Notes: generated by a model from the letters alone, not told the origin. A stretch of 64,000 nucleotides of DNA from an uncultured bacterium (GCA_963727525.1 CAVSGO010000007.1:1120001-1184000); one strand, 5' to 3'; numbered from the stretch's first letter, positions 2,536-61,976 are shown. Made by a program: numbers and translations.

Positions 2536-2692
2536 GGAGGCTCCTTCGACACGGGAAAACTCTCGTTGATCGTACGGTCTAGCCGCCGCCGCGGTCAATG
2601 TCGCAGGGCGCCTGACGACGCGCCAGCAAAGAACGGCGGGGCTCCGGATCGAGCCGGAACCCCGCGTCGCGTCCTTGCCTCCGTCGGAGGCG

Positions 2693-7522: not shown

Positions 7523-7738
7523 GCCTGACCTCCAGTAGGGATTGGTCTCGTGATACCAGAGAGGCCTGGACCCTTCCGGGGGGAAGAAGGGCGAGTGAGC
7601 GCTCGGCGACCCGGTCCGTGGGCCGCGCAGACGAAATCGTACTGTACCACAAAACGTCGAGATGGTCAATCAAGTCTGTTGATGTCCGATTAGAGAATCT
7701 CGCCGAATAACAGGCGGGTCGACCGTTTCCGCGCCGGA

Positions 7739-40868: not shown

Positions 40869-41450
40869 TCAGGAGCCGACGATCGTGATCGTCTCCTCCT
40901 TGAGGAGCTGGCGGTCGAGATAGATGCGCAGCAGGTACTCTCCCGTCTCGCGATGCTTCGCGCGCGAGATGTCGAAGATCGATTCCAGCATGAACGACGG
41001 CGCCTTCACGTGCTGAAGCTCGTGCCGGGAGTGATGTAGGTCGACCGCCTTCTTCCACGCGATGTCGATGTCGTACCCGCCGCTGTCGGCCGGCGTGACG
41101 GCGACCTCGGCGTAGCGGCGATACAGTTCGCGACCGTCGGGGCGGATCCAGACGAGGTGGGCCGAGTACAGCCGATCCGTACGCACGTCATGGAACGTCA
41201 CACGCGCGCGCACCCGACTCGTCTTCTTGATGCGGAACTCGAGGTCCTTGTCGCGCAGCCAGTGCTTCTTCGTGTAGCGGCGGGAGAAGGTGGTCGTGAT
41301 GTGGAACTGGTCGGCGGGCGCTTTCTCGCCGGCGGCCAGCGCCTGCTCATGGGCCGCCTGCTGCTGGGCCTCGCGAGTGTCGCAGCCACCAAGGGCCACC
41401 GTCAATAACATGAGCGCGAGCGTGATCATTCCGATGCGCCAGGATACCAT
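40869..41450 (-). CDS. Hypothetical lipoprotein (Ig-like beta-sandwich)
   Basis: Lipobox LGGC; beta-strand-rich; GEYLLRIYLD motif; GGAGG RBS. Confidence 0.65.
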   Translation of the reverse strand: MVSWRIGMITLALMLLTVALGGCDTREAQQQAAHEQALAAGEKAPADQFHITTTFSRRYTKKHWLRDKDLEFRIKKTSRVRARVTFHDVRTDRLYSAHLVWIRPDGRELYRRYAEVAVTPADSGGYDIDIAWKKAVDLHHSRHELQHVKAPSFMLESIFDISRAKHRETGEYLLRIYLDRQLLKEETITIVGS

Positions 41451-41483
41451 GGTGCCTCCAGCTGTCCGCGATCTGCACGAGCG

Positions 41484-41519
41484 CAGAGGCGGCCGGGCGC
41501 GAGCCCGGCCGCCGCCTGT
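41484..41519 (-). terminator. GC-rich hairpin after the C25 gene
   Basis: GGCGGCCGGGC-GCGA-GCCCGGCCGCC. Confidence 0.5.
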
Positions 41520-41543
41520 GGTCACAGTGGCACGGGGCCACCG

Positions 41544-44500
41544 TTATTTCAAGAGCAGCATCTTGCGCGTGAGCTGCCCCGCGTCGCTGGTCAAGCGGTA
41601 GAAGTACAATCCGCTGGCCACCAGGCCGCCTTGGTCGTTCTGCCCCTGCCACGTCACCTCGTGGGTGCCCGGCGCCTGCAGTCCATGCACGAGCGTGCGC
41701 ACGAGCTTGCCCTGGACATCGAAGATCTGCAACGAGATCTCCTGCGCCCGCGGCACCGCATACGTGATGGTGGTGCGCGGGTTGAACGGGTTCGGGTGAT
41801 TCTGGTGCAGCCCCACGGCGAGCGGGATCTCCGCGTCCACGCCCGTGGAGATGTCGAAGGTGACGTCACCATCGGCCGTGTCCACGGCCTGATGCTGCGC
41901 GGCGTCGCGCACGGTCACGCGGAAGCGGCCGGTGTTCAGCCCCGGCTGCCCCGCGAAGTGCTCGTTCCACACGAAGCTGTAGCTGCCGGCAAAGGCGCCT
42001 TCCGCCACCGGGTAGATGTCGCTGCCGACCACGAAGGCGATCTCCGCATCGACCACGCCGATGTCGTCCGCCGCGTTCCACGTCACATTGACCGGCGTGC
42101 TCGTGGAGAAGGTCTGCCCTCCGTTGGGGTAGGTCAGCGCCACCGTGGGCGGCGTCTGGTCGGCGATGAGAACGTTCGCGTCGAGCGACAGGTCGTCGAC
42201 CAGGGCCTCGACGATCGAACCGGAGCCCGTGTCCTGGGCGATGAAGCGCAGGCGGACGTTGGGCGTCATGGCGATGTAGTCCTCGAGCACGAAGCTCTGC
42301 TGCACCCAGCTGCGGTTGCTCGTGGTGGTGTTCTCGAGCGTGACCCACGACGAGCCGTCGTCGGTGGCCTGGACAACCCAGGCGTCCTCGCCTGGCGCGT
42401 TGCCCGTGTCGTTGCTGAACCAGCGCCAGTAGCTGACGGTGGCGCCCGCATAAGCCGAGAGGTCATAGACCGGGCTGTAGAGCGTCGTCGCCCCGTTGTC
42501 GACATCGTCGCCGCCCTCCACGGCACCCTCGGAATCCTGGCCGGTCACCCAGCAGAGCGTGCCAGGCGTCGGGGTGTGGTCGTCGCTCGGCACGAGGATC
42601 TCGCCGCCGGCCGACACGTAGACGGTATTGGGATCGACACGAGTCCAGATGCCCGTGGTCGCGGTGTCGCCGCCGCCCACGTTGACCTGCCAGCCGGTGT
42701 CGGTTTCCATGGCGTCGTCGAGAATGTGCGTGACGTCGGCCACCTGGAACGAATACACCGGCCAGGGCGCGCCGACTGGATCGGCCGAATCGTTGCCCAC
42801 CACGTCGGCCGCGGTGAGCCAGTACTGCACCCGGGTGCCGACCGGCTGGCCCGGAATCTCCCCGTGCACCAGGCCGCTCGGCGGGTCAACCACGGTGAGC
42901 GGAACCTCGAACGGTCCGCCGTTCGTGGACGACGTGTAATACAGGTGCCGCGAAGCCACGCCGGTGACGTCGGTGATGTTGCTTTCCACGACGTACGGAC
43001 CCGCCGTGTCGGTGGTGTTGCCCAGCATCGTCGTGTTCGCGATGTACGGACCTCGGATGTCGACGAGATTGAAATCCGCCACCGTGAGATGGTCCTCGGT
43101 GATGACCACGTTGCGCGTGGTGTCGGGCGCGAAGCTGTCGTGGTACACGGCCACGTCCCAGGTGCCCACCGGTACGCTGCCCTCGTAGTGGCCGCTCGCA
43201 TCGGACGCGATCTGGCGGCCGGCGCCGACGACCGTCACCAGTGCGCCCTCGATCGGCGCGCCGCCGCCCGAGGCGTTCGTGATCGCGCCACCCAGGCTGC
43301 CCTGGATCTGCGGCACGATGGGCACGATCCGGATCGCGCGCCCGGCCGCTACGGTCGCGGCGCCGCCGGCGTAGTGATTGCCATACGCATAGGTGAGGCC
43401 GTCGGTGCGGTCCTCGTTCTGGATGCCGACGGTGAAGTACGTCGACTCGTCACCATAGATCGACACGCTGTTGTAGAGGATCTCGATGGGGCCGTCGCCC
43501 GTCTCGGTCGCATGGTAGGCGGGATCGTAGAGGATGATCTGGAAGGTGTTGTTGCCGCTGTATCCGCCGCCGGTCTCGGCCCGCCAGCCCGTCCACTGCA
43601 CGATGAATCGATGCTGAGCCGTGTCGTTGTACGTGTGGACGGTTCCGTTGGCGAGATCGTCCCAGAACCCACAGATCATGTTGCCGGGGCCGCCGTCGCT
43701 CGGCAGGTACCAGTTGCGGTACAACCGCTGGTAGGTGTGGCCGAACGCGAGCCAGCCGTTGGTGCAGATCGACACCTGCGTCTGCGGCTGGCCGTAGAGC
43801 TCGAAGGTGAACGGCAGCGCGAAGGTGCCGGTGTCGTCGTCGTAGGACGAGTTGTCCGACAGGCCCGTGTTCTGGCCGATCGCGGAGATGTCCATCCAGT
43901 CGTAAACCGGCGCATTGGCATCGGAGTCGGTGTTGTCGAACGCGTAGTAGCCGTATGCGTCGGGACCGGCCGGATCGCCGGCGACCGCCGTGCCGATCAC
44001 CTTCTGGAACTCCAGCGTGCTGGTTCCACCCTCGGCGAACTGCAGCGTGAGCGTGAAGTTCGCCAGATGGCCCGGATAGCAGTCGGAGGAGATACTCACG
44101 GCGAAGGGGTCACTCTGGCTTACCTGTTGCCCGATCGGCAAGGCGCCGAACGTGCCGGTGTCGTCCGTGATCGTCACCCAGTTGCTCGTGGTGGACAGAG
44201 TCGCCGTGGCCCCGCTCGAGGCCAGATTGCCCGTGTTGACGAGGTCGCTCGTCACGTTGCCCGTTTCTCCCGGGTCCATGGTGCCGCCAGGCCCACTGTA
44301 ATTCACGCGGCTGAGGCTGCCGCGCGGACCGGTGACGAGCACGTCGACAAGGCTGGTCCAGGTCTGGGCGCCGCTGCTGGCATCCAGCCGCAGCGAGATG
44401 GTCTGGCCGCCCGGAGCATCGGCGTCGAGGCTCACCGCGTACGCCCCCTGACTCCAGGCCGATGCGCCGCCTGCAATCGTCCCGAACGCCTGCGTGCCCG

Positions 44501-46667
44501 TGGTGACGTGCACATAGGGCAACGGACTGCTGAGCGTCGCCGTGACGCTGCCCAGCCCGTTGCTCCCGTGGTTGGCGAGCTGAATCGTGAGATCCAGCGC
44601 CTCGCCGGGATTCGGCACGTCGTCACCGTTGCCGCTCGCCTCGCTCAACTGCAGCGCGCTGTAGTCGAGCGATGCGCTCACGTTGCCGATCGTCGCGGAT
44701 CCGAGGAACGGCTTGAGGTTGTGCTTGGTCACCGTGACCTGCAGCGTGCCGTCGGCGACGCCCGCCACCGACAGCACCGCCTGGCCGGCCTGGTCGGTGT
44801 ACGCCGTGGTCTGAACGTTCCCGGCCTGGTAGACGGTCACCATCGCGTCGGCCACCGGTATGCCGCCCACCATCACCGTGACGGGGATGGCATTGGCGCC
44901 ACTGGACAGGGTCGCCGGATAGCTGACCGTGGCCGCGACGGGCACGCCCGTGTAGATCTCGGTCGCGGGATCACCCATCAGGTTGTTCCACGTCGACCAG
45001 ATCGTGACGTTGCTCGGTTCGTTGACGATGAAATTCTTGTAGAGCGCAAGCTTGCCGCGGGTCAGGGCGGGACCCACGCGGTAGTCGCCCGTGTTCAAGA
45101 CGCCGTTGCACACGCCAAGGAAGATGCAGTTGTTGTAACGCGTGTGGGTATGGATGGTCGAGGTCCCGATCGCCGCGACACCGCCACCGCCGGTGTTGCG
45201 CAGGAAAGCCTCGCTCTGCGAGGTCTCGGATAGGAACGACCCCGTGCCACAGGTCATGATGACGGCGAATGGCAACTGGCGGCCGTTGGACAGGGAGTTG
45301 ATGTAGGAATTGGAGAATCCACTCATACCCCACCAGCCGCGGTACGTGAAGATCGACTCGCCCTGGTTGATCGTGTTGAACATCTGCGTCGTGAAATCAC
45401 CGCTGAAGATGGTGTCGATGCGCGTGTATTCGAGGCTCTGCAGCGACTCCTTCACGAACTGCTGGACCCAGACGGTGCTGTAGCCGGAGTTGCCGGGATC
45501 GCCCGTCAAGCCTGCCGTGGTGAACCAGCTCTGATCGCTGAGATCGGGATTGGTCTCATACTGTACGACCTTGTTCACCACGTTCGTCAGCTCCGCTGCG
45601 CTAATCACCGACAGGCGACCGATGTGGACATCCGACAGCACGTCGCCACCCTCGAGCAGGGTGTATTCGTGATCGCCCTCGCCGGAAGCGCCGGAGAGGT
45701 TCTCCTGCCAGGTCGGGATCGAGACGGAACCGGACGCGTCGCCCACCAGCGCGACGAATTCGAGGGGCGGATCGACGTTGTTGTAAATCGACTGGAGGTA
45801 GGACTTGATTGCCGTGTTCGAGGTGCCCGTCTGTGCCGTGGTCGCCAGCAGCACGTGATAGCCCTGACGGCGGCGCCAATCCAGAAGCGGCTGCGCGGCC
45901 GCCGTCACGGACGCGTTATCGGGGCAGATCATCAGGTAGGTCCCCGGTCCGACCATCGTATCGGCGTCGCGGACATAGCCGATGATCTCCTGCTCGTATA
46001 TGCGCGCAAACGATTCCGGGATGCGATGGTGCGCAATCACCGGGTCGTTGCGGGTGTCGCGACCGGCGAACGTCACGTCGACCGTCAGCTTGTGCGCCAC
46101 GGCGATGGCGCCGGTGCTCGGATCGTAGCTGACCGGTGCAAAGGTGACTGGCACGACGCGCAGGCCGTGCATCAGCGCGGGCTCCCCGAGGGCGACCGTG
46201 GCCTCGGACCGCGGCGCCGCCGCATACTGCGTCAGGTCGAGATGCAACGGGGTGTCCGCCTGGAAGGCGTCGCGCAGGGGCAAGTTGGGCGCGATGGCCA
46301 TCGGTGCCAAGGGCGTCATCTCCTTGTCGACCACGCGCAGGCGAGCACCGACGCCCGCCGGCAGAGCCACCAGGCGCGTGATGGTGGGCAGGGCGGCCTG
46401 GCCGACCTGCCCGCTGACACCGCCATCGGCCAGGGCGAGGGCCTGATAGGTACGACCGTCGATCGTCATGTCCGTGACGTCGAGGCTCGGGACGGTCAGT
46501 TCCAGAGTGAATCCATCCAGGCGCTCGGCGAGCACCTTGACGGCGGCGTCCCCCGTATCTCCCTGCGGCGACAACGATAGCGATCGTGTCGCGTCGTCAG
46601 CGGCCCAGGCCGGGGTAACGGCCACGACCAGCGTGAGGATGATCACGGCCCACTTTTGCCAGCGCAT
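41544..46667 (-). CDS. Secreted C25 (gingipain-like) protein, YRG variant, with Ig-like, carboxypeptidase-regulatory-like and FlgD-Ig C-terminal domains
   Basis: Signal peptide; FVALVGD, IGRLS, TYRG, MTCGTG, NLMGDP motifs; NHPNPFNP...RKMLLLK C-terminus. Confidence 0.85.
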   Translation of the reverse strand: MRWQKWAVIILTLVVAVTPAWAADDATRSLSLSPQGDTGDAAVKVLAERLDGFTLELTVPSLDVTDMTIDGRTYQALALADGGVSGQVGQAALPTITRLVALPAGVGARLRVVDKEMTPLAPMAIAPNLPLRDAFQADTPLHLDLTQYAAAPRSEATVALGEPALMHGLRVVPVTFAPVSYDPSTGAIAVAHKLTVDVTFAGRDTRNDPVIAHHRIPESFARIYEQEIIGYVRDADTMVGPGTYLMICPDNASVTAAAQPLLDWRRRQGYHVLLATTAQTGTSNTAIKSYLQSIYNNVDPPLEFVALVGDASGSVSIPTWQENLSGASGEGDHEYTLLEGGDVLSDVHIGRLSVISAAELTNVVNKVVQYETNPDLSDQSWFTTAGLTGDPGNSGYSTVWVQQFVKESLQSLEYTRIDTIFSGDFTTQMFNTINQGESIFTYRGWWGMSGFSNSYINSLSNGRQLPFAVIMTCGTGSFLSETSQSEAFLRNTGGGGVAAIGTSTIHTHTRYNNCIFLGVCNGVLNTGDYRVGPALTRGKLALYKNFIVNEPSNVTIWSTWNNLMGDPATEIYTGVPVAATVSYPATLSSGANAIPVTVMVGGIPVADAMVTVYQAGNVQTTAYTDQAGQAVLSVAGVADGTLQVTVTKHNLKPFLGSATIGNVSASLDYSALQLSEASGNGDDVPNPGEALDLTIQLANHGSNGLGSVTATLSSPLPYVHVTTGTQAFGTIAGGASAWSQGAYAVSLDADAPGGQTISLRLDASSGAQTWTSLVDVLVTGPRGSLSRVNYSGPGGTMDPGETGNVTSDLVNTGNLASSGATATLSTTSNWVTITDDTGTFGALPIGQQVSQSDPFAVSISSDCYPGHLANFTLTLQFAEGGTSTLEFQKVIGTAVAGDPAGPDAYGYYAFDNTDSDANAPVYDWMDISAIGQNTGLSDNSSYDDDTGTFALPFTFELYGQPQTQVSICTNGWLAFGHTYQRLYRNWYLPSDGGPGNMICGFWDDLANGTVHTYNDTAQHRFIVQWTGWRAETGGGYSGNNTFQIILYDPAYHATETGDGPIEILYNSVSIYGDESTYFTVGIQNEDRTDGLTYAYGNHYAGGAATVAAGRAIRIVPIVPQIQGSLGGAITNASGGGAPIEGALVTVVGAGRQIASDASGHYEGSVPVGTWDVAVYHDSFAPDTTRNVVITEDHLTVADFNLVDIRGPYIANTTMLGNTTDTAGPYVVESNITDVTGVASRHLYYTSSTNGGPFEVPLTVVDPPSGLVHGEIPGQPVGTRVQYWLTAADVVGNDSADPVGAPWPVYSFQVADVTHILDDAMETDTGWQVNVGGGDTATTGIWTRVDPNTVYVSAGGEILVPSDDHTPTPGTLCWVTGQDSEGAVEGGDDVDNGATTLYSPVYDLSAYAGATVSYWRWFSNDTGNAPGEDAWVVQATDDGSSWVTLENTTTSNRSWVQQSFVLEDYIAMTPNVRLRFIAQDTGSGSIVEALVDDLSLDANVLIADQTPPTVALTYPNGGQTFSTSTPVNVTWNAADDIGVVDAEIAFVVGSDIYPVAEGAFAGSYSFVWNEHFAGQPGLNTGRFRVTVRDAAQHQAVDTADGDVTFDISTGVDAEIPLAVGLHQNHPNPFNPRTTITYAVPRAQEISLQIFDVQGKLVRTLVHGLQAPGTHEVTWQGQNDQGGLVASGLYFYRLTSDAGQLTRKMLLLK

Positions 46668-46749
46668 GCTTCTCGCCTCCATCTCGTTCAAGGGCACGCA
46701 GCCGCACGCTGCGGCGCGACGTCCGAGGTCGGTTGAGTTCTCGCATTTC

Positions 46750-46905
46750 ATTATAGCAGATTGCATATTTTCAAGTACGTCCGTTTTCTTAACGATTCCG
46801 TGATTAATCCCGACAAATTGTCCTGTAGAGCGCGCATTCTGCAGGATTTGTCTCATAAATATGATTTTCGACCCATGGCGAGGGCATTCGGCGCCGTGCT
46901 ATACT
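46750..46905. promoter_or_regulatory. Divergent extended -10 promoters of the PGA locus
   Basis: TGCTATAAT on the minus strand (46750-46758) and TGCTATACT on the plus strand (46897-46905) in an AT-rich intergenic region. Confidence 0.55.
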
Positions 46906-46954
46906 CGCCCGTACTGAAACACCGTAACCCGACGTATGCCGGAGGTTGTCGCCC

Positions 46955-48604
46955 ATGATCCGCGTTTTGACCCGACCCCTAGCCCTGCTCGTGCTTCTCG
47001 TCGCCGCCACGGCCACGGCCGGCGTGATCAACGTACCCGGCGACTACTCCCTGATCCAGGATGCCGTCATGGCCGCGGCGTCTGGCGACACGGTCCTCGT
47101 CGCCGCCGGGACCTACCACGATTGCACCCACGAGACGGAAGGGCCGGGCACCACCCCGGCCTGCGTCATCATGCGTTCGGGCGTGACGCTGCGGGGCGTG
47201 AGCCAGAGCGGCACCGTCATCGACGCCGAGGGCCTCGGCCGCGGCATCTTCGTGCAGAACGTGGCGAACTGCCGCATCGAGAACCTCACCGTCACCGGCG
47301 CCTTCGCCGACGTCTACGGGGCCGGCATCCTGGTACGCCGCGTCGGCGATACCGTCACCATGACGGACGTGACGATCGATCAGAACCTCGACGGCGGGAT
47401 CATCTGCACCAGCCACGCCGACCCGGTGCTGACCCGCGTCACGTTCACGCAGAACGTCGCCAAGCAGGGTGGTGGACTGTCGATTGAAGATACGAGTTCT
47501 GTCCAGGTCATCGACTGCATCGTCGACGACAACAGCGCCCCCTCGGCGGCGGGCGTGTTCGTGCGCAACCAGAGCGTGGCCACGCTCACCGGTTGCCAGA
47601 TCATCGACAACGTGGGCACAGCGCCCAACAGCAACTGCGGGGGCTTGTTCGTCAACGAGGCCGAGATCCACATGAGCGACTGCCTCGTCGCCGGCAACGT
47701 CAGTCTCGGCAACGGTGGCGGCATCGCCATGAGTGCCACTTCGGGCGAGATCGCCAATAGCGTGATCAGCGGCAATACCTGCAGTTCGCCCTTCACGAAG
47801 GGCGGCGGCCTCGCTTGTGAGCAGTCGTCGGTGACCCTGCGCAACCTGCTCATCGCGAACAACGCCGTCACCGGCCTGTCGGGCAAGGGCGGTGGCATAG
47901 ACGTGAGCTTCTCGCCGTCGCCGACGATCGAGCACTGCACGATCGTGGGCAACTCCTGCGAGGCCTCGGGCAGCGGCGGCGGCATCTCCTGCCAGCTCGG
48001 CGCCTCGCCGACGCTCACCAATTGCATCATCGCCGGCAGCCCCGTGGGCGAAGCGATGGTCTGCCTCATCGCCGCGAACCCCACGGTGACGGGTTGCGAC
48101 CTGTGGGGCAATGCCGGGGGCGACGCGATCTGCGGCACCGACGGCGGCTGCAACTTCTCGGCCGACCCCGTCTTCTGCGGTACGACCGGCCACGAGTACA
48201 ACATCCAGCCGGGCAGCCCCTGCGCGGCCGGCAACCATCCCGATGGCGGCGCCTGCGGTGCGAGTTACTGTGGAGCGTACGCCGTTGGCTGCGGCGACGT
48301 GGGTGTGGAGGATCTGCCGGACCCGGCCGGTCTCGTGCTGGGCAACGCGCCGAATCCGTTCAACCCACTGACCAGCATCTACTTCATCCTTGACGCGCCC
48401 GGCGACGCCGTGCTTGGTATCTACGACCTGCGTGGCCACGCGCTCCGCACCTTCCACTTCTCCCAGGTGCGCGCGGGTCAACGGCACGAGATCGTCTGGA
48501 ATGGCAAGGACGACGCCGGCCTGGACCTGCCTAGTGGTGTTTATCTCTACCGCCTGCAGGCAAACGGCCTGACCACCAGCAAGAGGATGAGTCTGATCCG
48601 ATGA
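46955..48604 (+). CDS. Secreted right-handed parallel beta-helix protein with FlgD-Ig C-terminal domain
   Basis: VPGDYSLIQDAV...GDTVLV.AGTY; GGGI/N-rich repeats; NAPNPFNP...KRMSLIR C-terminus. Confidence 0.82.
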   Translation: MIRVLTRPLALLVLLVAATATAGVINVPGDYSLIQDAVMAAASGDTVLVAAGTYHDCTHETEGPGTTPACVIMRSGVTLRGVSQSGTVIDAEGLGRGIFVQNVANCRIENLTVTGAFADVYGAGILVRRVGDTVTMTDVTIDQNLDGGIICTSHADPVLTRVTFTQNVAKQGGGLSIEDTSSVQVIDCIVDDNSAPSAAGVFVRNQSVATLTGCQIIDNVGTAPNSNCGGLFVNEAEIHMSDCLVAGNVSLGNGGGIAMSATSGEIANSVISGNTCSSPFTKGGGLACEQSSVTLRNLLIANNAVTGLSGKGGGIDVSFSPSPTIEHCTIVGNSCEASGSGGGISCQLGASPTLTNCIIAGSPVGEAMVCLIAANPTVTGCDLWGNAGGDAICGTDGGCNFSADPVFCGTTGHEYNIQPGSPCAAGNHPDGGACGASYCGAYAVGCGDVGVEDLPDPAGLVLGNAPNPFNPLTSIYFILDAPGDAVLGIYDLRGHALRTFHFSQVRAGQRHEIVWNGKDDAGLDLPSGVYLYRLQANGLTTSKRMSLIR

Positions 48605-52407: not shown

Positions 52408-52412
52408 CGACC

Positions 52413-54058: not shown

Positions 54059-56045
54059 CCGTCGCAAGTGGGTTCTCGCGGGACTCGCCGCCCTCGCCAT
54101 CGCGCTGCAGGTGCTGCTGGACGTCACGCGCGCGCCGATGCGGCAGAGCAACTACGACCTCAAGCTTGCCGCCACCGAACGCGCGGCCGAGGCGTTCGGT
54201 GTCCTGCGCGACTACCGGCTGCACAAGGGTGCCGTGCTCGACATGCTGAACGATCCGGCCGGCACCGGACTGGTGGGACCCGAGTTCAGCCGCATCACCA
54301 ACGCCCGCGGCGACCACGCGTCCAAGTTGACGAGCCTGAATCCGAACTGGGCCGCCGTGATCGTCGATTTCTGCCGTGAAGCCGGACTCAAACGTGGCGA
54401 CCCCGTCGCGGTGGCCGTCTCGGGATCGTTCCCCGGACTGAACATCGCCGTGCTCTCCGCCCTCGAGACGCTGCGGCTACGGCCGGTGCTGCTCACATCC
54501 GTGGGTGCGTCCATGTGGGGTGCCAACGATCCCGATTTCACCTGGCTCGACATGGAGTCCATCCTGCACGAGGCCGGCATCTTCACCACCCGGACCGTGA
54601 TGGCCACCTACGGCGGCGGCAGCGACATGGGACGCGGCCTGAGTCCCGAGGGGCGGCGCCTGATCCGCGAGGCGGCGAAGCGCAACCACGTGGAGTTCCT
54701 CGAGCCGCGCAACATCGAGTACTCGATCGCCAAGCGCATGGCCGTGTACGAGGAGGAGGCGCGCGGTCGTCCTTACAAGCTCTACATCAACGTGGGCGGC
54801 GGCGTGGCCAGCCTGGGCAGCAGTCACAACGGAGTACTCGTACCCCACGGACTGACGCTCGATCTCGGCATGCACAACTTCCCGCGCAAGGGCACCATGA
54901 TCCTCTTCGGGGAGAAGGGTATTCCCGTGGTCCACATGCTCCAGATCAAGAGCCTGGCGAGGAAATTCGGCCTGCCGATCGCGCCGGATTACATGCCGGC
55001 GCCCGGCGAGGGCGAGATCTTCGTGCGCGATGCCTACCGCCTGCCGCTGGCTGCCGCGGTGCTGGCCGCCTACACGCTGCTGTGCGTGTTGATTCTCGCG
55101 CCCGAGGTCCGGCGCGGCATCTTCGACCGGCTTTCGCGGCCGCGCGGGGCGGCTTCGGCGGGATTGGTCTTCGTCATGCTGCTCGGAGCCTCGGCGGCCA
55201 CCGCGGCCACGAGCGGCTGGGTCCGGATCAAGACGTTGCACGCCCCGGACAAGACCTGCATCAATGTCGGCGGGCGCGAATACAGCTACGCCGTGTTCCG
55301 CCCCGAAAATGCGGCCACGTTTACCGTCACCGGCCCGCGGCAGCTCCGCGTCAGCAGCCGCTATCTCTTCAGCGAGGACGACCCGGCCAAGGTCCCCTAC
55401 ACCATGGTCGTCACGGTGGACGGGCAGGAACGCCTGCGCAAGACCCACACCGGGCGGCCGCACGGAGAGGTGCGCCTGTGCCGGCAGGCAGGCCGCGTGG
55501 GTACGCTGCGCAAGGCCACCCTCGATATCGGCCCAGGCAAGCACACCGTGCGGGTCACGGCGCTCACGTCCGGCAAGGGGCACGTGGCCGGCCGCGTATA
55601 CCGGCAGGTCAAGAACCGGCGCGTGCGCACGGTCCTCTACGCACCCGACGGCTACGACGACGTGCGCGAGCTGCAATTCGCCAGCGGCAGCCATTCCACG
55701 TATTACCATCTCACCGCCGATGCGCCCGTGCGATTCACGGTGGGAGGCCCGACCGACCTGCAGCTCTACGCACGCCTCGATTTCGACCACACGATGAACG
55801 GCAGCCAGACGTACGCCCTCGCGGTGCGCTGCGACGGGGAAGAGTGGAAGACCTTCGTCTTCGACAGTCGCAAGCTCGACACCGCGGTGTACGTGACGCA
55901 GCCGGACGTGCTGCCCGGCAGCCGCAACGACTTCAGGATCGCGGTGGCCCGTGGCCGCCATGTTTACGAGATCCGCTGCCTGCGGCCCGAACGGTGCGGG
56001 GTGGCGGTGCAGATCCGCATCCCGCGCACGGATCTGCAACACTAG
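54039..56045 (+). CDS. pgsW: Poly-gamma-glutamate system protein PgsW fused to two C-terminal beta-sandwich repeats
   Basis: DPAGTGLVG.E, KLTSLNP, SGSFPGLN, SVGASMWGAN, YINVGGG.ASLG motifs; about 300 extra residues after a second hydrophobic segment; TTG start after GGAGG inferred. Confidence 0.8.
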   Translation: MSWRLDSRRKWVLAGLAALAIALQVLLDVTRAPMRQSNYDLKLAATERAAEAFGVLRDYRLHKGAVLDMLNDPAGTGLVGPEFSRITNARGDHASKLTSLNPNWAAVIVDFCREAGLKRGDPVAVAVSGSFPGLNIAVLSALETLRLRPVLLTSVGASMWGANDPDFTWLDMESILHEAGIFTTRTVMATYGGGSDMGRGLSPEGRRLIREAAKRNHVEFLEPRNIEYSIAKRMAVYEEEARGRPYKLYINVGGGVASLGSSHNGVLVPHGLTLDLGMHNFPRKGTMILFGEKGIPVVHMLQIKSLARKFGLPIAPDYMPAPGEGEIFVRDAYRLPLAAAVLAAYTLLCVLILAPEVRRGIFDRLSRPRGAASAGLVFVMLLGASAATAATSGWVRIKTLHAPDKTCINVGGREYSYAVFRPENAATFTVTGPRQLRVSSRYLFSEDDPAKVPYTMVVTVDGQERLRKTHTGRPHGEVRLCRQAGRVGTLRKATLDIGPGKHTVRVTALTSGKGHVAGRVYRQVKNRRVRTVLYAPDGYDDVRELQFASGSHSTYYHLTADAPVRFTVGGPTDLQLYARLDFDHTMNGSQTYALAVRCDGEEWKTFVFDSRKLDTAVYVTQPDVLPGSRNDFRIAVARGRHVYEIRCLRPERCGVAVQIRIPRTDLQH

Positions 56046-56057
56046 GGTGGATGGCGC

Positions 56058-57575
56058 ATGAGACGGAAACGTACCAATCGCATCGTCGTAATGGGCCTCG
56101 TTGCAGCACTCCTGCCGGCCGCGATGGCCGCGGCCTACGTACCCGATCCGCTCGGCCTCACCTACGAGGTCGGCATCGGCGGGCGTCCGTACCTGCGCGT
56201 GGGCGCGGTGCCCGTGATGCTGGCGCTGCGGGGCCCGGGCACGTTCTACGGCTACGCCCGCACCACCTTCCTCCCCGGCGAGGCGGGCAAGAAGCAGGGC
56301 CGCCTCCAGGTGAGCGGTTTGCCGGGCGATCCGATCACGCTCCCGCTCACCTTCGAGCCGTCGACCGAGAGCGACTTCGACGACGGTCGCCCCGGCCAGG
56401 CGAGCGCCGGCGCGCGCTTCGAGGTGAAGGTGCCCGACGGCGCCTGGACGCTCGTGCTGCGCGGCGACGTGGACGCGCCCACCGACGGCGCCGACGAGAT
56501 CTTCGTGACGTTGTACTATGACGGCCCGCGCCAGACCTCGCGCAAGGGTACGGCCAGCGCCAAGTCGTCACCCTGGTCCTGGCACAACCGCGCCGGTCTC
56601 GAACTGATCTACGATGACAACATCCTCACGCAGAGTCCCGACGCGTTCATCATCTTCGAGAACAATTCCGATCCGGCGGCCTTCCGCATCCACAGTACGG
56701 ACGACCTGCTCGTGGTGCCGAGCGTCGATCTCGAGGTGCGGCGCAATCTCTTCGACTTCGGACAGACCCGCGTTCGCTTCCGGGTGAAGTACTGGCATTA
56801 CACTTACAACCCCATCAAGACGAACACGGATTTCGACTTCTACCTGCGCCAGTACTGGGGCCGAAAGACGTCGTTCGAACTCTACGTGAATCACGCGCCC
56901 GAGCAATACATCCGGCAGCTCAACGACTTCGCGCCGTTCCAGGATCCGGAAACGCCGACCGAATCCAAGGAATTCCGATTCACGCGCAACGTCGTGAATC
57001 TCACCTGGCGCCAGAGCGTCAGCCGGCGCGTCGCCACCAAGCTCTCGCTGGAGACCAACCGCCGCTATTACAACAAGCCGTTCATCGAGAACGACATCGA
57101 GGCCTGGGAACTGCGCGGCAATGTGCGCTTCCGCGCGACCCGCTGGCTCGATATCGACGTCGACTACGGCTGGGAAGACGCGGCCGGCCGCGGCTACGAC
57201 ACCGTGGGTGAGACCCCGGAAACCAGCGACGACGGCGATCCCAGCTACGAGCGCGACCTCTATCGCCTCGGCTTCGGCATCGACACCCCGTTCCTCGATC
57301 CGGTCGTCGACGGCCTCGACGTCGCCGGCCTCTTCATGGACTATTACTACACCACGAAGAAGCCCATCTTCGATGCCCCGTTCCAGAGGGGCCGGCGAGA
57401 CAAGTGGGGCAAGGTCTTCGTGACGCTGCACAAGCGACTGAACCGGCGGATCAGCCTCGACGTGGGCTTCACCTATTCCGAACGCGCCGTGGAGTCGCCG
57501 TGGTACGGCGACATCACCCTCGACAAGAACTACATCCAGCACCGTTACTCGGTCGGTGCCGACTACCGATTCTGA
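56058..57575 (+). CDS. Putative outer-membrane beta-barrel protein with N-terminal beta-sandwich domain
   Basis: Signal peptide; YDDNI motif; alternating aromatic strands; terminal YRF (BAM-type signal). Confidence 0.7.
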   Translation: MRRKRTNRIVVMGLVAALLPAAMAAAYVPDPLGLTYEVGIGGRPYLRVGAVPVMLALRGPGTFYGYARTTFLPGEAGKKQGRLQVSGLPGDPITLPLTFEPSTESDFDDGRPGQASAGARFEVKVPDGAWTLVLRGDVDAPTDGADEIFVTLYYDGPRQTSRKGTASAKSSPWSWHNRAGLELIYDDNILTQSPDAFIIFENNSDPAAFRIHSTDDLLVVPSVDLEVRRNLFDFGQTRVRFRVKYWHYTYNPIKTNTDFDFYLRQYWGRKTSFELYVNHAPEQYIRQLNDFAPFQDPETPTESKEFRFTRNVVNLTWRQSVSRRVATKLSLETNRRYYNKPFIENDIEAWELRGNVRFRATRWLDIDVDYGWEDAAGRGYDTVGETPETSDDGDPSYERDLYRLGFGIDTPFLDPVVDGLDVAGLFMDYYYTTKKPIFDAPFQRGRRDKWGKVFVTLHKRLNRRISLDVGFTYSERAVESPWYGDITLDKNYIQHRYSVGADYRF

Positions 57576-57587
57576 CAAGGAGCTGAC

Positions 57588-59975
57588 ATGTTGGCGACCT
57601 CGCGCACCCGCATTCTCGTGACCCTGGCGACCGCCGCCGTATTGCTCGCGGCCTGTGGCAAGCAGGACCTCTACGAACCGCCCGGCGCGCCCTACGAGGT
57701 GACGGGGCGCCTCCCGTTGCCGAGCGCCAGCCAGGCCGTGGCCGTCCTCGGGACCCATGCCTTCGTGGCGGGCGGTGAGGCGGGCCTGTATGGCGTCGAC
57801 TTCGGCAACCATGCCGCGCCGCAGCTCCTGTCGATGACCAATACCACCAAGTCGGCCGACGGCGTGAACGTGGTGCGCATCTACTCCGGCGGCCGGGTGC
57901 GCGACATCGCCCACGTGGTCGAGGGCACCGAGGGCATCACGTCGTATGATGTGACCGATCCTGCCAGCGTTTTCGACTTCCACACCGGCACCACGGCGGT
58001 CGTGGGCCAGAGCGCGTACGTCGCACAGACCGCCGACCCCGCCGCCGCCTACACCGTGTTCCTGGCCGAGGACTGGAAAGGCGTGCGCATCTTCGACTCC
58101 ATCCCGGCCGACCCCGGCATCCTGGCCTACAACGGCGTCTTCGTCGGCACCCTCGGCAAGGCCTATTCTATCGAGGTGCGCGACGGCTGGGGCTACGTGG
58201 CCGACGACGAGATGGGCCTGGTCGTGCTCGACCTGCGCGTGCTCGACCTCGATTCCGTGTCCATCGCGTCCTGGGCCGACACGCCGGGCAACGCGCGCGC
58301 CGTCGCGCTGTGGGGCGACTACGCCTTCGTCGCCGATGGGGTCGCGGGTCTTGCCGTGTTCCGCATCCACGAGGGCGACACGCCCGTGAAGGTGGCTCAA
58401 CTCGACCTCTCCGGCTTCAGCGAGGCCATCGCCCTGCGCGACGGCCTGATGGCGCTGTCGGCGAACAGTGCCGGCACCCATTTCGTGGACGTCCGCAATC
58501 CCGCGGCGCCCGTCTACCTGGGCACCATCCCGTCCGGATACGCCACCGGCGTGGCCTTCGCCGAGGACGGCACCTGCGTCATCTGCGACGAGGACGACGG
58601 CCTGCTCATCTGTACGGGCCACGGCCCGTTCCGGGATCTTACGGCGCCATCGCCCGTGACGACGCTCGCGGCCGCCCCGGCCGGCGCCTCCAGCATCCGT
58701 CTGTCGTGGGTCATGACGGGCGACGACCGCATGGTCGGCACCGCCAGCAACCTCGAGGTGCGGCGCAGCGACGCTCCCATCGTCGATGACACCACGTGGG
58801 AGGCCGCCACGCCGGTGGCCGGCGCGCCGGCGCCCGAGGCGCCGGGCACAGCGATGTCGCTCGTCGCCGATGGCCTCACCCCCGGCGTCACCTACCACTT
58901 CGCATTGCGCGTCACCGACGACGCGGGAAACGTCTCCGACCTCTCCAACGACGCCAGCACGGCGACGGCCGAGGGTATCATCCTGGTGAATCCCCAGGTG
59001 GACGTCGGCGGCGGCACGACGAGCGACACCTATACCTTCAGCGTGGAAGCCCTCTTCGAGGGCACGCTCACAGCCTCCGAGGTCGTGATCGACGGCACGC
59101 CGCACGCGATGACACTGGCGGACGGCTTCTACTCCTACGCCACCACGCTGGCTCCGGGTGTCCACTCGTATCACTTCCACTTCGCCGGCGACGGCGTGGG
59201 CGACGCGACCACCGAGGAGTTCGAAGGCCCGTATGTCGGCGAGATCGCGGTGACGCTCGGCAGCCCGGCCAGCGAGTCGGGACGCCGTGCTGACGAGGCT
59301 CGACACGTCGCGGTGTTCTCGCACGACGTGCAAGGTGGCACCTCCGAGGTGACTCAGGCCGAGTGGGATGCCGTCATGCCGGCCGGTTCCAACCCGTCGG
59401 AGTTCCCGGGCGCCGATCGCCCGGTCGACAGCGTCACCTGGTTCGACGCGATCATGTACTGCAACGCCCGGAGCACCGCTGACGGCACCACGCCGTGCTA
59501 CACGATCGACGCCGACAACCAGGTCACGTGGAATCGCGATGCCGATGGCTGGCGGTTGCCCACCGAGGCCGAATGGGAATACCTCTGCCGCGCCGGCACC
59601 ACCACTGCGTTTTATACGGGAGCGCTCACCGAGTTGTATTGCCGCCTCGATCCCGTGCTGGACGCGATCGGCTGGTACTGCGGCAATGCCGGCACCGGCA
59701 CGAGCACCGTCGCGCAGAAGCAGGCGAACGCCTGGGGCCTTTACGACACGTCCGGCAACGTGCGCGAGTGGTGCTGGGACTGGTACGGCGAGGCGCTGCC
59801 CGACGCGGCCCTCGACCCGGCCGGACCCGACACGGGCACGCAGCGCGTGTGCCGCGGCGGGAGCTGGTACTACAGCAGCCAGGATTGCCGCAGTGCGGCG
59901 CGCGGAACGTACTATCCCACGAGCCGCGACAACACCGTCGGCATGCGCGCGGTGCGCACCGTGTTCGAGAACTGA
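57588..59975 (+). CDS. Lipoprotein with LVIVD repeats, FN3-like domain and C-terminal FGE-sulfatase (SUMF1-like) domain
   Basis: Lipobox LAAC; YAFVADG..GL.V repeats; TYHFALRVTD; RLPTEAEWEY, GLYDTSGNVREW, RGGSW motifs. Confidence 0.82.
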   Translation: MLATSRTRILVTLATAAVLLAACGKQDLYEPPGAPYEVTGRLPLPSASQAVAVLGTHAFVAGGEAGLYGVDFGNHAAPQLLSMTNTTKSADGVNVVRIYSGGRVRDIAHVVEGTEGITSYDVTDPASVFDFHTGTTAVVGQSAYVAQTADPAAAYTVFLAEDWKGVRIFDSIPADPGILAYNGVFVGTLGKAYSIEVRDGWGYVADDEMGLVVLDLRVLDLDSVSIASWADTPGNARAVALWGDYAFVADGVAGLAVFRIHEGDTPVKVAQLDLSGFSEAIALRDGLMALSANSAGTHFVDVRNPAAPVYLGTIPSGYATGVAFAEDGTCVICDEDDGLLICTGHGPFRDLTAPSPVTTLAAAPAGASSIRLSWVMTGDDRMVGTASNLEVRRSDAPIVDDTTWEAATPVAGAPAPEAPGTAMSLVADGLTPGVTYHFALRVTDDAGNVSDLSNDASTATAEGIILVNPQVDVGGGTTSDTYTFSVEALFEGTLTASEVVIDGTPHAMTLADGFYSYATTLAPGVHSYHFHFAGDGVGDATTEEFEGPYVGEIAVTLGSPASESGRRADEARHVAVFSHDVQGGTSEVTQAEWDAVMPAGSNPSEFPGADRPVDSVTWFDAIMYCNARSTADGTTPCYTIDADNQVTWNRDADGWRLPTEAEWEYLCRAGTTTAFYTGALTELYCRLDPVLDAIGWYCGNAGTGTSTVAQKQANAWGLYDTSGNVREWCWDWYGEALPDAALDPAGPDTGTQRVCRGGSWYYSSQDCRSAARGTYYPTSRDNTVGMRAVRTVFEN

Positions 59976-59986
59976 GGAACGGAGCC

Positions 59987-61201
59987 ATGGCCACCAAGAA
60001 GAGAAGCACAGCCGTCCGGGCGCGCATCGCCGCCGAGACCGCGGTCGTGGACGCCCCCGAGCTGCCACCCGGCGCCGAGATGGCCAAGATCCCGGGCAAG
60101 AAGCTGCGCTTCACGTTCATCGACGAGTTCCGCGGACTCATCGGCATCATGATGGCCCTCGGGCATGCGCAGGAGTACATGAACTCGGCCTGGCTGAGCT
60201 TCGACTACGTCGATCCGCTGTACCCGAACCTGCCGCAGTTCCTGATCCGCTACATGGGGTACCTGTGCGCGCCCGGGTTCCTCGTGATGAACGGCGCCAT
60301 GGTCTACTGGGCGTTCCGTGTGCGCGTGAAGAGGGGCGAATCGGTGGGCCGGGCGCGCTGGGATTTCATCCAGCGCGGTCTCTTTCTCATGGCGGTCCAG
60401 TGGATCTGGGTGAACGCGGCCTGGGGCGGATTCACCCGCCTGCGCCTGGATCACCTGGGGATCATCGCCACGATCGGCTTCTCGATGATCATCCTGGTGT
60501 GGATGGTGCACTGGGACTGGCGCTACCGCCTGCTCGTGACCATCGCGGGTTTCCTGATCCACCCGCTATTGCTTCGTATCCCTTACGACCAGAGTTCCTG
60601 GCTGCACTATCCGATGCAGTTCTTCGTGGACAGCGGAGAGTTCAATCTCTACCCGGTGATTCCCTGGTTCTCGCTGGCCTGTCTGGGCTCGGTCATGGCC
60701 CACTTCTGGTTCTCGGTCTGGGTCGACCGGCGCAAGCCCGATGAGCGCGCCATCAAATCGATGCTCATCGGTGTGCTCATGGTGGTGTTTGCGGTGGGCC
60801 TGCGCGACTGGGGCAACTCCTACTTCAACATCTTCCCCCACAACGGCTTCTTCACCTACAGCTTCTTCATGGTACAGAAGTATCCGCCGAGCCTGACGCA
60901 CCAGATCTGGTTCGGCGGCGCGGTGATCTTCATGGTGGGTCTCTTCGCCTGGATCGACAATCGCCTGCCGGTGCTGCGCCCTCTGGCCATCGTCGGCCGC
61001 GTGCCGCTCTTCTACTACTGCCTGCACATCCCGATCCTGGCCTTCGTCTTCCGGCGCCTGGCGTGGCTGCCGTACCGCAGCGGCGAGGTGGCCGAGAGCC
61101 TGTACACGTGGTTCGGTCTGCTGGCGGTGATGCTGCCGTTGGCATGGTGGTTCGGCGGTGTGAAGCGCAAGCACCGCAACTGGTTCGTCCGTATGATCTA
61201 G
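59987..61201 (+). CDS. DUF1624/HGSNAT-like membrane acyltransferase
   Basis: IDEFRGL...MALGH, CAPGF, KYPPSL, GRVPLFYY.LH motifs; multiple TM segments. Confidence 0.78.
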   Translation: MATKKRSTAVRARIAAETAVVDAPELPPGAEMAKIPGKKLRFTFIDEFRGLIGIMMALGHAQEYMNSAWLSFDYVDPLYPNLPQFLIRYMGYLCAPGFLVMNGAMVYWAFRVRVKRGESVGRARWDFIQRGLFLMAVQWIWVNAAWGGFTRLRLDHLGIIATIGFSMIILVWMVHWDWRYRLLVTIAGFLIHPLLLRIPYDQSSWLHYPMQFFVDSGEFNLYPVIPWFSLACLGSVMAHFWFSVWVDRRKPDERAIKSMLIGVLMVVFAVGLRDWGNSYFNIFPHNGFFTYSFFMVQKYPPSLTHQIWFGGAVIFMVGLFAWIDNRLPVLRPLAIVGRVPLFYYCLHIPILAFVFRRLAWLPYRSGEVAESLYTWFGLLAVMLPLAWWFGGVKRKHRNWFVRMI

Positions 61202-61214
61202 CGGGGAGGTCGGG

Positions 61215-61976
61215 ATGAAGACACGCAATCTCTTGCCGTTCTTGTTCATGATCGCTGGTGGTCTGGCCATGCTGGGCGCGGCCGGCGGCGACCTGATCAA
61301 GGATGGCGGCTTCGAGCACCTCAAGAAGAGTTCCGCCTTGCGGCGGGACGACAAGGGTCAGGACTGGTACGAGAGTCGCAAGGATGGCAAGGAGGGGCCG
61401 AAGCTGCTCATCCTCTCGAGCAAGGCCATCGCCGGCAACGCCACGCGCAAGGCCATGATCAAGGCCCACCCCGATCTCAACACGTATCTCACGCAGAAGC
61501 TCGCCACGCCGCAGACGGGCCGCTTCGCGCTGAGCTACGACGTGTGCGTCAAGGAGATCCTGCCTGACGACAACCACTCGGCATTCTGCTTCGTGGGCGC
61601 GAGCTACGATCGCAAGGGCGGGCCCTGTTCCACGGCCAAGGAGCGTTTCCTCTTCCTTGGATTCGAGAACTCCGCCACCGCGCCCGGCAAGCTCGCTCTT
61701 TTCTCCCGCGAGGGCGACAAGGACTGGCCGTCGCGCACGGTCCTGGCGCCCGAGCTCACGACCATGGCATGGCACCACATCGAGGCCCAGGTGGACGTGA
61801 AAGCGAGCAAGTACCGCGTGCGGGTCGACGGAGGCCCCTGGAGCAAGGACCTCAAGGCGTTCAAGGCCACGGGCGGGACGCCGCCGAAGCGCCTGACGCA
61901 CGTGTGCTTCGCCTCGTGGAACGACGGCGCCGGCACCTTCTATATCGACAACGTCTCCGTGGTCCCGACGCCCTAG
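61215..61976 (+). CDS. Secreted jelly-roll/CBM-like protein
   Basis: Signal peptide; LIKDGGFE start and FYIDNVSV end; Lys-rich. Confidence 0.6.
   Translation: MKTRNLLPFLFMIAGGLAMLGAAGGDLIKDGGFEHLKKSSALRRDDKGQDWYESRKDGKEGPKLLILSSKAIAGNATRKAMIKAHPDLNTYLTQKLATPQTGRFALSYDVCVKEILPDDNHSAFCFVGASYDRKGGPCSTAKERFLFLGFENSATAPGKLALFSREGDKDWPSRTVLAPELTTMAWHHIEAQVDVKASKYRVRVDGGPWSKDLKAFKATGGTPPKRLTHVCFASWNDGAGTFYIDNVSVVPTP

Follow-up and report, generated by a model that had tools for sequence, protein, structure and literature searches.

A candidate poly-gamma-glutamate synthesis and export cluster with a gingipain-like partner lacking the catalytic histidine in a diderm Krumholzibacteriota genome

A stretch of 64,000 nucleotides from the assembly of an uncultured bacterium (GCA_963727525.1, CAVSGO010000007.1:1120001-1184000; hereafter the window, with positions counted from its first letter) contains, at 40869-61976, a group of genes arranged around the poly-gamma-glutamate (PGA) synthase genes pgsB and pgsC. 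Comparisons with related genomes and with loci of other lineages pointed to a co-inherited cluster that would make PGA and export it through the inner and the outer membrane of a diderm Krumholzibacteriota cell, with one protein of peptidase family C25, here named C25a, as a dedicated partner. A probability of about 0.6 was given to this reading. The cluster is apparently a real diderm PGA export system that has not been described before, and its arrangement goes beyond chance because it recurs in other assemblies and because its genes are gained and lost together.

Organization of the cluster

The window has a G+C content of 64-72% and many spurious open reading frames (ORFs), and genes were chosen by family match and by conservation in other assemblies. 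The following features were recognized, where CTD denotes the C-terminal sorting domain for secretion by the type IX system (T9SS).

40869-41525, minus strand: small lipoprotein (ORF; probable start Met26 at 41450), with a signal peptide and an LGGC lipobox
41544-46856, minus strand: C25b (ORF; start probably 46667, which gives a signal peptide), with Propeptide_C25, Peptidase_C25, CarboxypepD_reg, Big_7 and FlgD_ig/CTD
46668-46954: divergent intergenic region, 287 nt with corrected starts, less GC-rich, promoters presumed
46955-48604, plus strand (ORF 46946-48604): right-handed beta-helix protein, with Beta_helix (88 bits), FlgD_ig and a T9SS CTD
48601-52407, plus strand: C25a, with Peptidase_C25 (residues 154-520), Ig-like domains, an NIDO-like region and a T9SS CTD
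52413-53585, plus strand: pgsB, PGA synthase ligase subunit (TIGR04012)
53585-54058, plus strand: pgsC, membrane subunit (TIGR04011, PF14102)
54024-56045, plus strand: TIGR04332-X fusion, 673 aa (TIGR04332 part, or W, 54024-55130; X part 55131-56045)
56058-57575, plus strand: outer-membrane barrel protein, 505 aa, recognized from a structure model, without a Pfam or NCBIfam family
57588-59975, plus strand: LVIVD/FN3-like/FGE-sulfatase-like lipoprotein, with an LAAC lipobox
59987-61201, plus strand (start may be 60080): HGSNAT_cat/DUF1624-type membrane acyltransferase (PF07786)
61215-61976, plus strand: 253-aa secreted protein without a family, last gene of the run

The nine plus-strand genes at 46955-61976 are spaced by -4, +5, -1, -35, +12, +12, +11 and +13 nt; the gap before the HGSNAT gene would be +104 nt instead of +11 if the later start at 60080 were used. 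A preliminary description of this DNA had reported a run of closely packed genes, and its order, coordinates and spacing were borne out by the ORFs and by the Pfam and NCBIfam matches. C25b and the small lipoprotein gene are indeed read divergently from this run and share with it the single 287-nt intergenic region. The genes for PgsB, PgsC, W, X, C25a, the barrel and the HGSNAT-type protein are single-copy in the genome, which is assembled in 8 contigs of 4.66 Mb in total.

Co-inheritance among related genomes

The distribution of the cluster was determined in 41 genomes, this one (G000) included, drawn from the same family and class. TIGR04332 was present in 20 of them. Orthologues of C25a, taken as a best match with E <=1e-45 (a threshold set after a gap in the scores had been seen), were found in 17 genomes, all with TIGR04332 and with 50-70% identity of the catalytic domain over the matched stretches; in the other 24 genomes the best match to this domain was 1e-26 or weaker, or there was none. 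Orthologues of the beta-helix and LVIVD proteins were found in the same 17 genomes. Barrel orthologues occurred in 18, namely the 17 carriers of C25a and, as a weak match, G034, all of them with TIGR04332. HGSNAT orthologues were present in 15 of the 17 carriers and were not found in G020 and G023, the assemblies of which consist of 380 and 660 contigs. None of these five proteins had an orthologue in the 21 genomes without TIGR04332.

Position was conserved as well as presence. In 15 of the 17 genomes C25a and TIGR04332 share a contig and a strand, with C25a 4-5 kb upstream; the two genes are on different small contigs in G003 and G020. The expectation in the preliminary description that C25, barrel and DUF1624/HGSNAT genes accompany pgsBCW in relatives was thus confirmed, with C25a as the C25 gene concerned. 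Within a single family (f1) the cluster is patchy, with 13 of 24 relatives carrying it, and the whole block must therefore have been lost or gained repeatedly. On this distribution of orthologues, the accessory module is inherited as a block.

The core cassette and C25a in other lineages

Seventy-nine loci around TIGR04332 homologues (L numbers below) were compared by tblastn with the window proteins and by clustering of all ORFs. Nearly all of them share the order pgsB-pgsC-TIGR04332-X-barrel, across many lineages of the Fibrobacterota-Chlorobiota-Bacteroidota (FCB) type. In the lineages of L045 and L057 the flanks are housekeeping genes (FolD, RecJ, DNA polymerase III delta, glycosyltransferases), and the core cassette therefore stands alone there. 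Sixty loci extend at least 1.3 kb downstream of W/X, and 52 of these have a barrel gene there. The claim that an outer-membrane barrel of its own accompanies the PgsB/PgsC/TIGR04332 set accordingly held, as different lineages have retained the barrel beside these genes.

Genes resembling C25a were also found beside the cassette outside Krumholzibacteriota, with PF01364 scores of 189-217 bits and a T9SS tail in L073 and L042 (none was detected in L086). They lie directly upstream of pgsB in the Cloacimonadota-labelled loci L054, L056, L067, L073-L075, L079, L083 and L084, upstream of pgsB in L041 and L042, and, in the loci L080 and L086 labelled Neomarinimicrobiota/Fidelibacterota, downstream of the cassette. 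Where at least 4.5 kb of sequence precedes pgsB (46 loci), a C25a-like gene is present in 25 (13 of 14 of Krumholzibacteriota type and 12 of 32 others). Among 41 genomes around the Cloacimonadota genome G041, TIGR04332 was present in 37, and the best C25a-like gene was 4-6 kb away from it in about 14.

The C25a-linked loci fall into four separate clades of the TIGR04332 tree, and the linked state requires at least four changes on it. In a C25 tree, obtained by a quick search without bootstrap, the pgs-adjacent proteins form one set of 34 rows (33 plus one long-branch paralogue) with a value of 84 in the Shimodaira-Hasegawa-like approximate likelihood ratio test (SH-aLRT).

In the Cloacimonadota-labelled locus L067, the only one of these searched with Pfam, a T9SS-tagged Peptidase_M14 zinc carboxypeptidase (2489-4801) is encoded directly upstream of the C25a-like gene and pgsB, and genes of 771-789 aa occupy the corresponding position in L056, L075, L083 and L084. 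Some M14 members remove glutamates from polyglutamate chains.

Calditrichota-type loci (L045, at 7243-8226; L047, L064, L069, L085) have a PD40 (TolB-like) beta-propeller gene directly upstream of pgsB, which may parallel the LVIVD propeller that follows the barrel elsewhere.

PgsB, PgsC, the TIGR04332 protein and X

The synthase genes are, by their scores, ordinary members of known families. PgsB matched TIGR04012 at 403.2 bits (cut-off 222.7) over model positions 2-380 of 380; PgsC matched TIGR04011 at 118.1 bits (cut-off 96.45) and PF14102 at 112 bits. The TIGR04332 part of the fusion, encoded directly after pgsB and pgsC, scored 316 bits against a cut-off of 100 over residues 18-324. The family match behind the earlier label 'PgsW' is therefore sound, and the name itself is not used by NCBIfam, where the family is called 'poly-gamma-glutamate system protein'.

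A model of the fusion protein (predicted local distance difference test score, pLDDT, 92.5) begins with a transmembrane helix and a periplasmic alpha/beta domain (37-337) and continues through a long helix (340-370) and a linker of low confidence to the two jelly-roll domains (397-530, 536-667) that make up X. No Pfam or NCBIfam model matched X. Its best fold matches were a tandem of carbohydrate-binding modules (CBM) of family 51 (2ygl_A, Z 10.2, though with a root-mean-square deviation (rmsd) of 15.9 over 248 residues), CBM36 (7ay3_A, Z 10.1, rmsd 2.7, 108 residues), CBM35 (2w46_A, Z 9.2) and the cellulose-synthase subunit BcsB (5eiy_B, Z 9.0; 6yg8_A, Z 8.1), all with Z values moderately above the background stated for the tool. 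The X domains are thus predicted to be CBM-like jelly rolls, and the resemblance to BcsB would be one of analogy rather than homology. For the N-terminal alpha/beta domain of the TIGR04332 protein, VIA-align gave no more than one Rossmann-like row (Z 7.5).

In most loci X is a separate gene of about 300-330 aa beside a TIGR04332 protein of about 375 aa, and the separate X proteins start with a cleavable-looking signal peptide of their own. W and X share one frame in the window and in L014-L017. The junction in the window (55131-55200) retains a hydrophobic, signal-peptide-like segment with an Ala-Thr-Ala motif, and the fusion protein may be cut there by signal peptidase.

The outer-membrane barrel

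The barrel protein was modelled from a 40-sequence alignment (pLDDT 91.2) as an N-terminal beta-sandwich (37-155) followed by 14 membrane strands (178-504) with an aromatic C-terminal residue; homologues outside Krumholzibacteriota have 340-385 aa and lack the sandwich. The best Foldseek matches were the 14-strand monomeric channels OmpG (2x9k, 2f1c) and CymA, with E about 1e-7 and a TM-score on the target (TMt) of 0.58-0.64 for OmpG. FadL chains ranked below both (TMt 0.43-0.46 versus 0.58-0.64), and BcsC (9b8a) was at rank 38 with E 2.2e-5. Searches with Pfam and NCBIfam matched no family, none of the genome's seven NF033710 (PorV) matches falls at the barrel gene, which lends no support to a PorV homologue, and BLASTP between the sandwich and the X domains gave a best E of 0.19, which is not significant.

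In the Neomarinimicrobiota-type loci a gene of cluster c48 follows X (L080, 2361-3389; L086, 11968-13205; 343 aa, split in L086), for which no family or barrel similarity was detected. It may be a very divergent barrel.

The remodelled C25 site

The C25 domains of C25a and C25b matched Peptidase_C25 (PF01364) at 213.7 and 189.4 bits. With HMMER, C25a aligned to gingipain R (RgpB, 1cvr) at E 5e-23 and also to Kgp (4rbm), at E about 1e-22 for RgpB and Kgp. Cys410 of C25a stands opposite Cys244 of RgpB and Trp376 opposite His211; His211 and Cys244 form the catalytic dyad of RgpB. Unlike C25b, C25a has no propeptide domain.

An alignment of 62 C25 catalytic domains was examined, consisting of 33 pgs-adjacent C25a sequences, 17 of C25b type and 4 + 8 paralogues of this genome. 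All 33 C25a sequences have Y-R-G followed by W, F, E or Q at the position of the catalytic His of gingipain. The same Y-R-G is followed by W or Y in all 17 C25b-type sequences (YRGWW replacing GHG in the window's C25b) and by Y or F in four unlinked paralogues. The Cys is kept in all 33, all 17 and all four. The eight other paralogues, which include PorU and the product of the gene at 2693-7669 of the window, keep the His (seven as G-H-G and one as G-H-S). The residues invariant in all 33 C25a sequences include Tyr373, Arg374, Gly375 and Cys410 but no His; the densest block of invariant residues is the NIDO-like region (about 855-1053), not the C25 domain.

A HMMER scan of 1.84 billion representatives returned 10,940 relatives of C25a at E <=0.001, of which 679 had E <=1e-30. 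By pattern match on the best 150, [Y/F]-R-G followed by a residue other than His was present in 131 (W in 83, F in 18, Y in 8) and G-H-G in 2; no pattern could be assigned in 17. By these patterns, the YRG-aromatic C25 proteins are a large conserved subfamily with a remodelled site and not a one-off decay. Because the His is replaced, ordinary His-Cys peptidase or transpeptidase chemistry is not to be assumed for them. Fourteen genes of this genome match Peptidase_C25 over the cut-off; eight have the His (one of them seemingly without the Cys) and six are YRG-aromatic.

The two C25 proteins of the cluster differ in how closely they are tied to it. Both had been presented as parts of the system, and for C25a, which is single-copy and co-inherited, this stood; for C25b the proposal is weaker, since its family has several copies and the remaining members have no link to PGA. 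The divergent C25b copy is conserved in 16 Krumholzibacteriota-type loci. The C25b family has four unlinked paralogues of the same architecture in this genome, and C25b is for this reason the weakest member of the set. One of them (C3:300343) is surrounded by further T9SS cargo genes and by genes for a PIG-L and a GSDH protein, none with a PGA link.

The window has a third C25 gene (2693-7669, minus strand), which lies outside the PGA cluster. Its 1658-aa product combines Peptidase_C25 (211 bits) with FG-GAP repeats and a T9SS tail and has an intact G-H-G/Cys dyad.

Secretion machinery and cargo

The genome encodes SprA above the cut-off, at least 40 frames with a T9SS C-terminal domain, and a true PorU at C7:790047-793442 (NF033707, 436.5 bits versus a cut-off of 420), followed by a PorV-like gene (91 bits versus a cut-off of 250). 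Against NF033707, C25a scored 56.7 bits and the C25b frame 46.6 bits. The earlier likening of the C25 domains to PorU was consequently abandoned: the score of 56.7 is far from 420, the true PorU lies elsewhere, and the His is replaced by Trp. For TIGR04183 (cut-off 23), C25a scored 28.2 bits and the beta-helix protein 23.1 bits; the tail of C25b matched FlgD_ig at 43.5 bits and Por_Secre_tail at 25.8, under the cut-off of 27. C25a, C25b and the beta-helix protein are classed as cargo of this system and not as its sortase, because each ends in a T9SS sorting domain.

Accessory genes of the run

Besides this genome, 16 relatives have a beta-helix orthologue, with 48-54% identity (69% in G003, where the match is partial). 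The best NCBIfam match of the LVIVD/FGE lipoprotein was GldK/PorK (TIGR03525), at 63.9 bits against a cut-off of 350 and through the FGE-like domain only. LVIVD proteins also follow the barrel in L041 and L042, and one of weak LVIVD likeness comes after the c48 gene in L080 and L086. The acyltransferase matched HGSNAT_cat (PF07786) at 38 bits, against a cut-off of 22; its orthologues are 55-65% identical (67% over a partial match in G003) and, as far as the assemblies allow, share a contig with the TIGR04332 or barrel gene.

The last gene of the run had been described as CBM-like. A 253-aa protein is encoded there, and the likeness to a CBM drew no support from the searches, as no significant Pfam or NCBIfam family was found for it (best Cleaved_Adhesin, E 0.12). 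Homologues occur in three other loci only (L019, L070, L076). For the small lipoprotein no family was found in Pfam or NCBIfam, a homologue occurs in one other locus only (L020), and its membership in the system is doubtful.

CapA-type and CapD-type functions

The cluster had been proposed to use C25 proteins instead of CapA and of CapD, a gamma-glutamyltransferase (GGT). At the locus this was correct, since a search of its 11 proteins for PGA_cap (PF09587) and GGT (PF01019) domains found neither. For the genome it was not, as an unlinked T9SS-cargo protein with a PGA_cap domain co-occurs with the cluster. This protein, of more than 1000 aa, is encoded at G000:C7:392654-395653 (L001:610-3609; PGA_cap match at C7:393545), about 780 kb from the cluster, and has PKD, PGA_cap (191 bits) and FlgD_ig/CTD domains. 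It is the genome's one strong PGA_cap match, the second being a sub-threshold match of 22 bits on C4. Of the 41 genomes, 14 have an orthologue (60-74% identity), each of them one of the 17 cluster carriers, and the other 24 have none; other, shorter PGA_cap proteins are scattered among the relatives without such a pattern.

GGT has the distribution of a general enzyme in this group, because it is present in 37 of the 41 relatives regardless of TIGR04332; this genome has two GGT genes, both outside the locus. In G005 and G001 only, a GGT gene (463 and 468 bits) adjoins pgsB, directly upstream. These are two of the three relatives with TIGR04332 and without C25a, and a member of the CapD family thus occupies there the very position held by C25a in loci of the window's type. 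Their pgs loci are deeply divergent (pgsB 28-31% identical to that of the window, no detectable barrel) and are arranged as follows.

G005, L135 7524-12168 (C199): GGT-pgsB-pgsC-TIGR04332, then a CTD protein
G001, L136/L137: GGT-pgsB, with pgsC and TIGR04332 on a separate contig (L137)

A homology search for further loci of this type with the G005 TIGR04332 protein returned only its own contig.

Proposed function and alternative explanations

PgsB and PgsC are established as polymerizing glutamate in their family, and as members of it the proteins of the window would do so at the inner membrane. The TIGR04332 protein would replace PgsA/CapA as the extracytoplasmic partner, and gene order, topology and folds suggest that X guides the chain through the periplasm to the 14-strand barrel. 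The LVIVD-FN3-FGE-like lipoprotein is probably a scaffold under or on the outer membrane. Proteins of the HGSNAT family move acetyl from cytoplasmic acetyl-CoA to an amine across a membrane, and PGA has one free amine per chain, at its N-terminus; the acyltransferase may cap this single amine and possibly protect the polymer against the ubiquitous GGT. The T9SS would deliver the beta-helix protein, C25a, C25b and the PGA_cap protein to the surface, where they would handle the polymer as it emerges. In this scheme C25a would be a partner dedicated to handling PGA on the outside of the cell, at the place taken by a GGT of the CapD type in other systems.

Several observations weigh against this reading. 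The production of PGA is itself predicted only from the families to which the proteins belong. The threshold for C25a orthologues was fixed with the scores in view, and the 41 related genomes are not independent samples. A C25a-like gene is missing from 20 of the 32 loci of other than Krumholzibacteriota type that have at least 4.5 kb upstream, and also from L034, a Krumholzibacteriota-type locus with the beta-helix, HGSNAT and LVIVD/FGE genes; in the more distant relatives of G041 the best C25a-like gene is unlinked from TIGR04332. On the side of export, no barrel was detectable in eight of the 60 loci (L048, L062, L063, L068, L072, L080, L086, L087), and the conserved residues of the barrel include many Asp and Glu, which would not naively be expected in the pore for a polyanion. 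Searches of the PDB by sequence and profile, of Pfam (E <=5) and of the ESM Atlas gave no usable match for the N-terminal domain of the TIGR04332 protein. In the nearest relatives of the window (L018, L076) W and X are two genes, so that their fusion here may either have arisen independently or reflect an assembly indel. Finally, the catalytic His is missing from both C25 domains, and catalysis would need a mechanism other than the ordinary His-Cys dyad.

What C25a does at the surface can be read in several ways. A non-canonical, Cys-dependent processing or tethering of the polymer, for which the invariant Cys speaks, is preferred, at somewhat less than even odds. A purely binding, non-catalytic role, suggested by the missing His and the very conserved NIDO-like region, comes second and was considered rather unlikely, with the remaining weight on other links. 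Applied to both C25 proteins, the binding view makes them pseudo-peptidases, with the His-less C25 fold, the NIDO-like region or both binding PGA non-covalently and thereby keeping the capsule attached to the cell. The loss of the His throughout the group, the concentration of invariant residues in the NIDO-like stretch instead of the C25 domain, the invariant Arg374 two residues before the former His position, the surface attachment implied by the CTD and the separate candidate hydrolase (the M14 peptidase) of the Cloacimonadota loci agree with it, but all the His-less sequences examined have kept the Cys, which would be unusual for a dead enzyme; this explanation is rated as being on the doubtful side. 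That C25a and C25b are instead active cysteine peptidases or transpeptidases of the PorU/gingipain type, cutting or covalently attaching PGA in place of CapD, is unlikely. The strong Peptidase_C25 scores, the invariant nucleophile, the GGT in the same position in G005 and G001 and the M14 peptidase adjoining C25a in Cloacimonadota would be in keeping with such an activity; Trp376 is nevertheless aligned with RgpB His211, the 33 C25a sequences share no invariant His, the match to the PorU model is far below its cut-off in a genome with a true PorU elsewhere, and the eight other paralogues have retained the His, so that its loss is specific to this group. It would be equally bold, and is offered as an improbable extension, to regard the YRG-aromatic C25 proteins as a new class of Cys-dependent gamma-glutamyl-polymer transpeptidases or depolymerases, the diderm FCB counterpart of the GGT CapD, acting on PGA from an undescribed trans-envelope machine.

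The dependence might also run in the opposite direction, PGA being an anionic surface polymer that retains, or is conjugated to, T9SS cargo, as anionic lipopolysaccharide does in Porphyromonas, with the neighbouring cargo proteins as its main clients. At least three T9SS cargo genes lie in the cluster, CTD proteins also flank the pgs genes in Cloacimonadota, in L080/L086 and in G005, the genome has full-scoring PorU and SprA besides its many CTD frames, and the one free amine of each PGA chain is a possible acceptor. However, 21 of the 41 relatives are without TIGR04332 and several of these have C25/CTD-type proteins, so that PGA is not a general anchor, and the idea was rated as quite improbable. 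Least probable is a chance adjacency or shared regulation, in which abundant C25 genes merely lie beside an ordinary pgs operon. The 14 C25 matches in 4.66 Mb and the close paralogues of C25b among unrelated cargo genes elsewhere are what it would predict, whereas C25a is single-copy, has orthologues in 17 of the 20 genomes with TIGR04332 versus 0 of the 21 without, keeps its position and strand in 15 of these 17, and has pgs-linked counterparts in three further lineages.

Relation to known systems

PgsB and PgsC are equivalog-level members of the families found in Bacillus PgsBCA(E) and Bacillus anthracis CapBCADE, and a polymer-handling gene adjoins the synthase genes here as capD and pgdS do in Bacillus. 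The locus differs from those of Bacillus in that PgsA/CapA and GGT are absent and TIGR04332, X and an outer-membrane barrel are present instead, and the PGA_cap domain is found on a T9SS cargo protein elsewhere in the genome. In a diderm cell, moreover, anchoring to peptidoglycan in the manner of CapD would not display the polymer. As in the pgsB-pgsC-TIGR04332 cassettes of NCBIfam, the TIGR04332 protein directly follows pgsB and pgsC; in the window, however, it is fused to X, and in most loci examined the cassette extends to X and the barrel.

The synthase-dependent secretion of exopolysaccharides (BcsA/B/C, alginate, poly-N-acetylglucosamine) likewise combines an inner-membrane polymerase with a periplasmic CBM-like jelly-roll protein (X here, BcsB there) and a dedicated barrel in the same operon. 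The polymer predicted here is a polyamide made by an ATP-dependent ligase and not the product of a glycosyltransferase, the barrel is of the 14-strand OmpG/CymA-like kind and not one of 16-18 strands with a tetratricopeptide-repeat arm, and no sequence homology between the systems was detected. With the gingipains (RgpB, Kgp) and PorU the cluster shares the C25 domain (189-214 bits), the T9SS sorting domains and the presence of PorU and SprA in the genome. It departs from them in the replacement of the His by Trp, in scores far under the PorU cut-off, and in that C25a lacks a propeptide domain and has a conserved NIDO-like region.

A full-text literature search, with subscription journals and supplements outside its scope, found no paper in which PGA is connected with C25, the T9SS, an outer-membrane exporter or Krumholzibacteriota. 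The consulted passages of PMC8542988 mention CapBC/PGA genes in Cloacimonadota and, in a separate context, C25 peptidases, and do not connect the two. Apparently new are the conserved place of X and the barrel in the cassette, the T9SS-linked accessory block, the His-less C25 partner and the relocated CapA-type domain.

The route by which PGA reaches the surface of bacteria with an outer membrane is not described in the literature searched, and the five-gene core common to many uncultured FCB-type lineages provides a concrete parts list for it. The fixed accessory set ties PGA to the T9SS, the position of the PGA_cap domain on a cargo protein suggests that a CapA-type domain can work outside the cell, and a large gingipain-like family with an altered active site has been brought out. 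Practical interest lies in PGA production in Gram-negative hosts and in a function for thousands of unannotated 'C25 peptidases' in metagenomes.

Additional observations

A sigma-70 consensus scan for promoters found 0 sites, this consensus not covering promoters of FCB type, and a terminator scan gave 7 hits where 6.5 were expected by chance. The records with TIGR04332 homologues are mostly labelled Krumholzibacteriota, and some automatic labels are clearly unreliable: the labels Fibrobacteraceae, Bacteroidaceae, Alphaproteobacteria and Armatimonadota disagree with the tree placement of the proteins of those records. L089 and L090 are the same 3464-nt contig, with an identical TIGR04332 protein, in two metagenome-assembled genomes labelled Eisenbacteria and Solirubrobacteraceae. 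In the window, groES/groEL lie beyond the small lipoprotein gene on the same strand, and the 3' end of the plus-strand run meets the convergent genes coaX and nadC.

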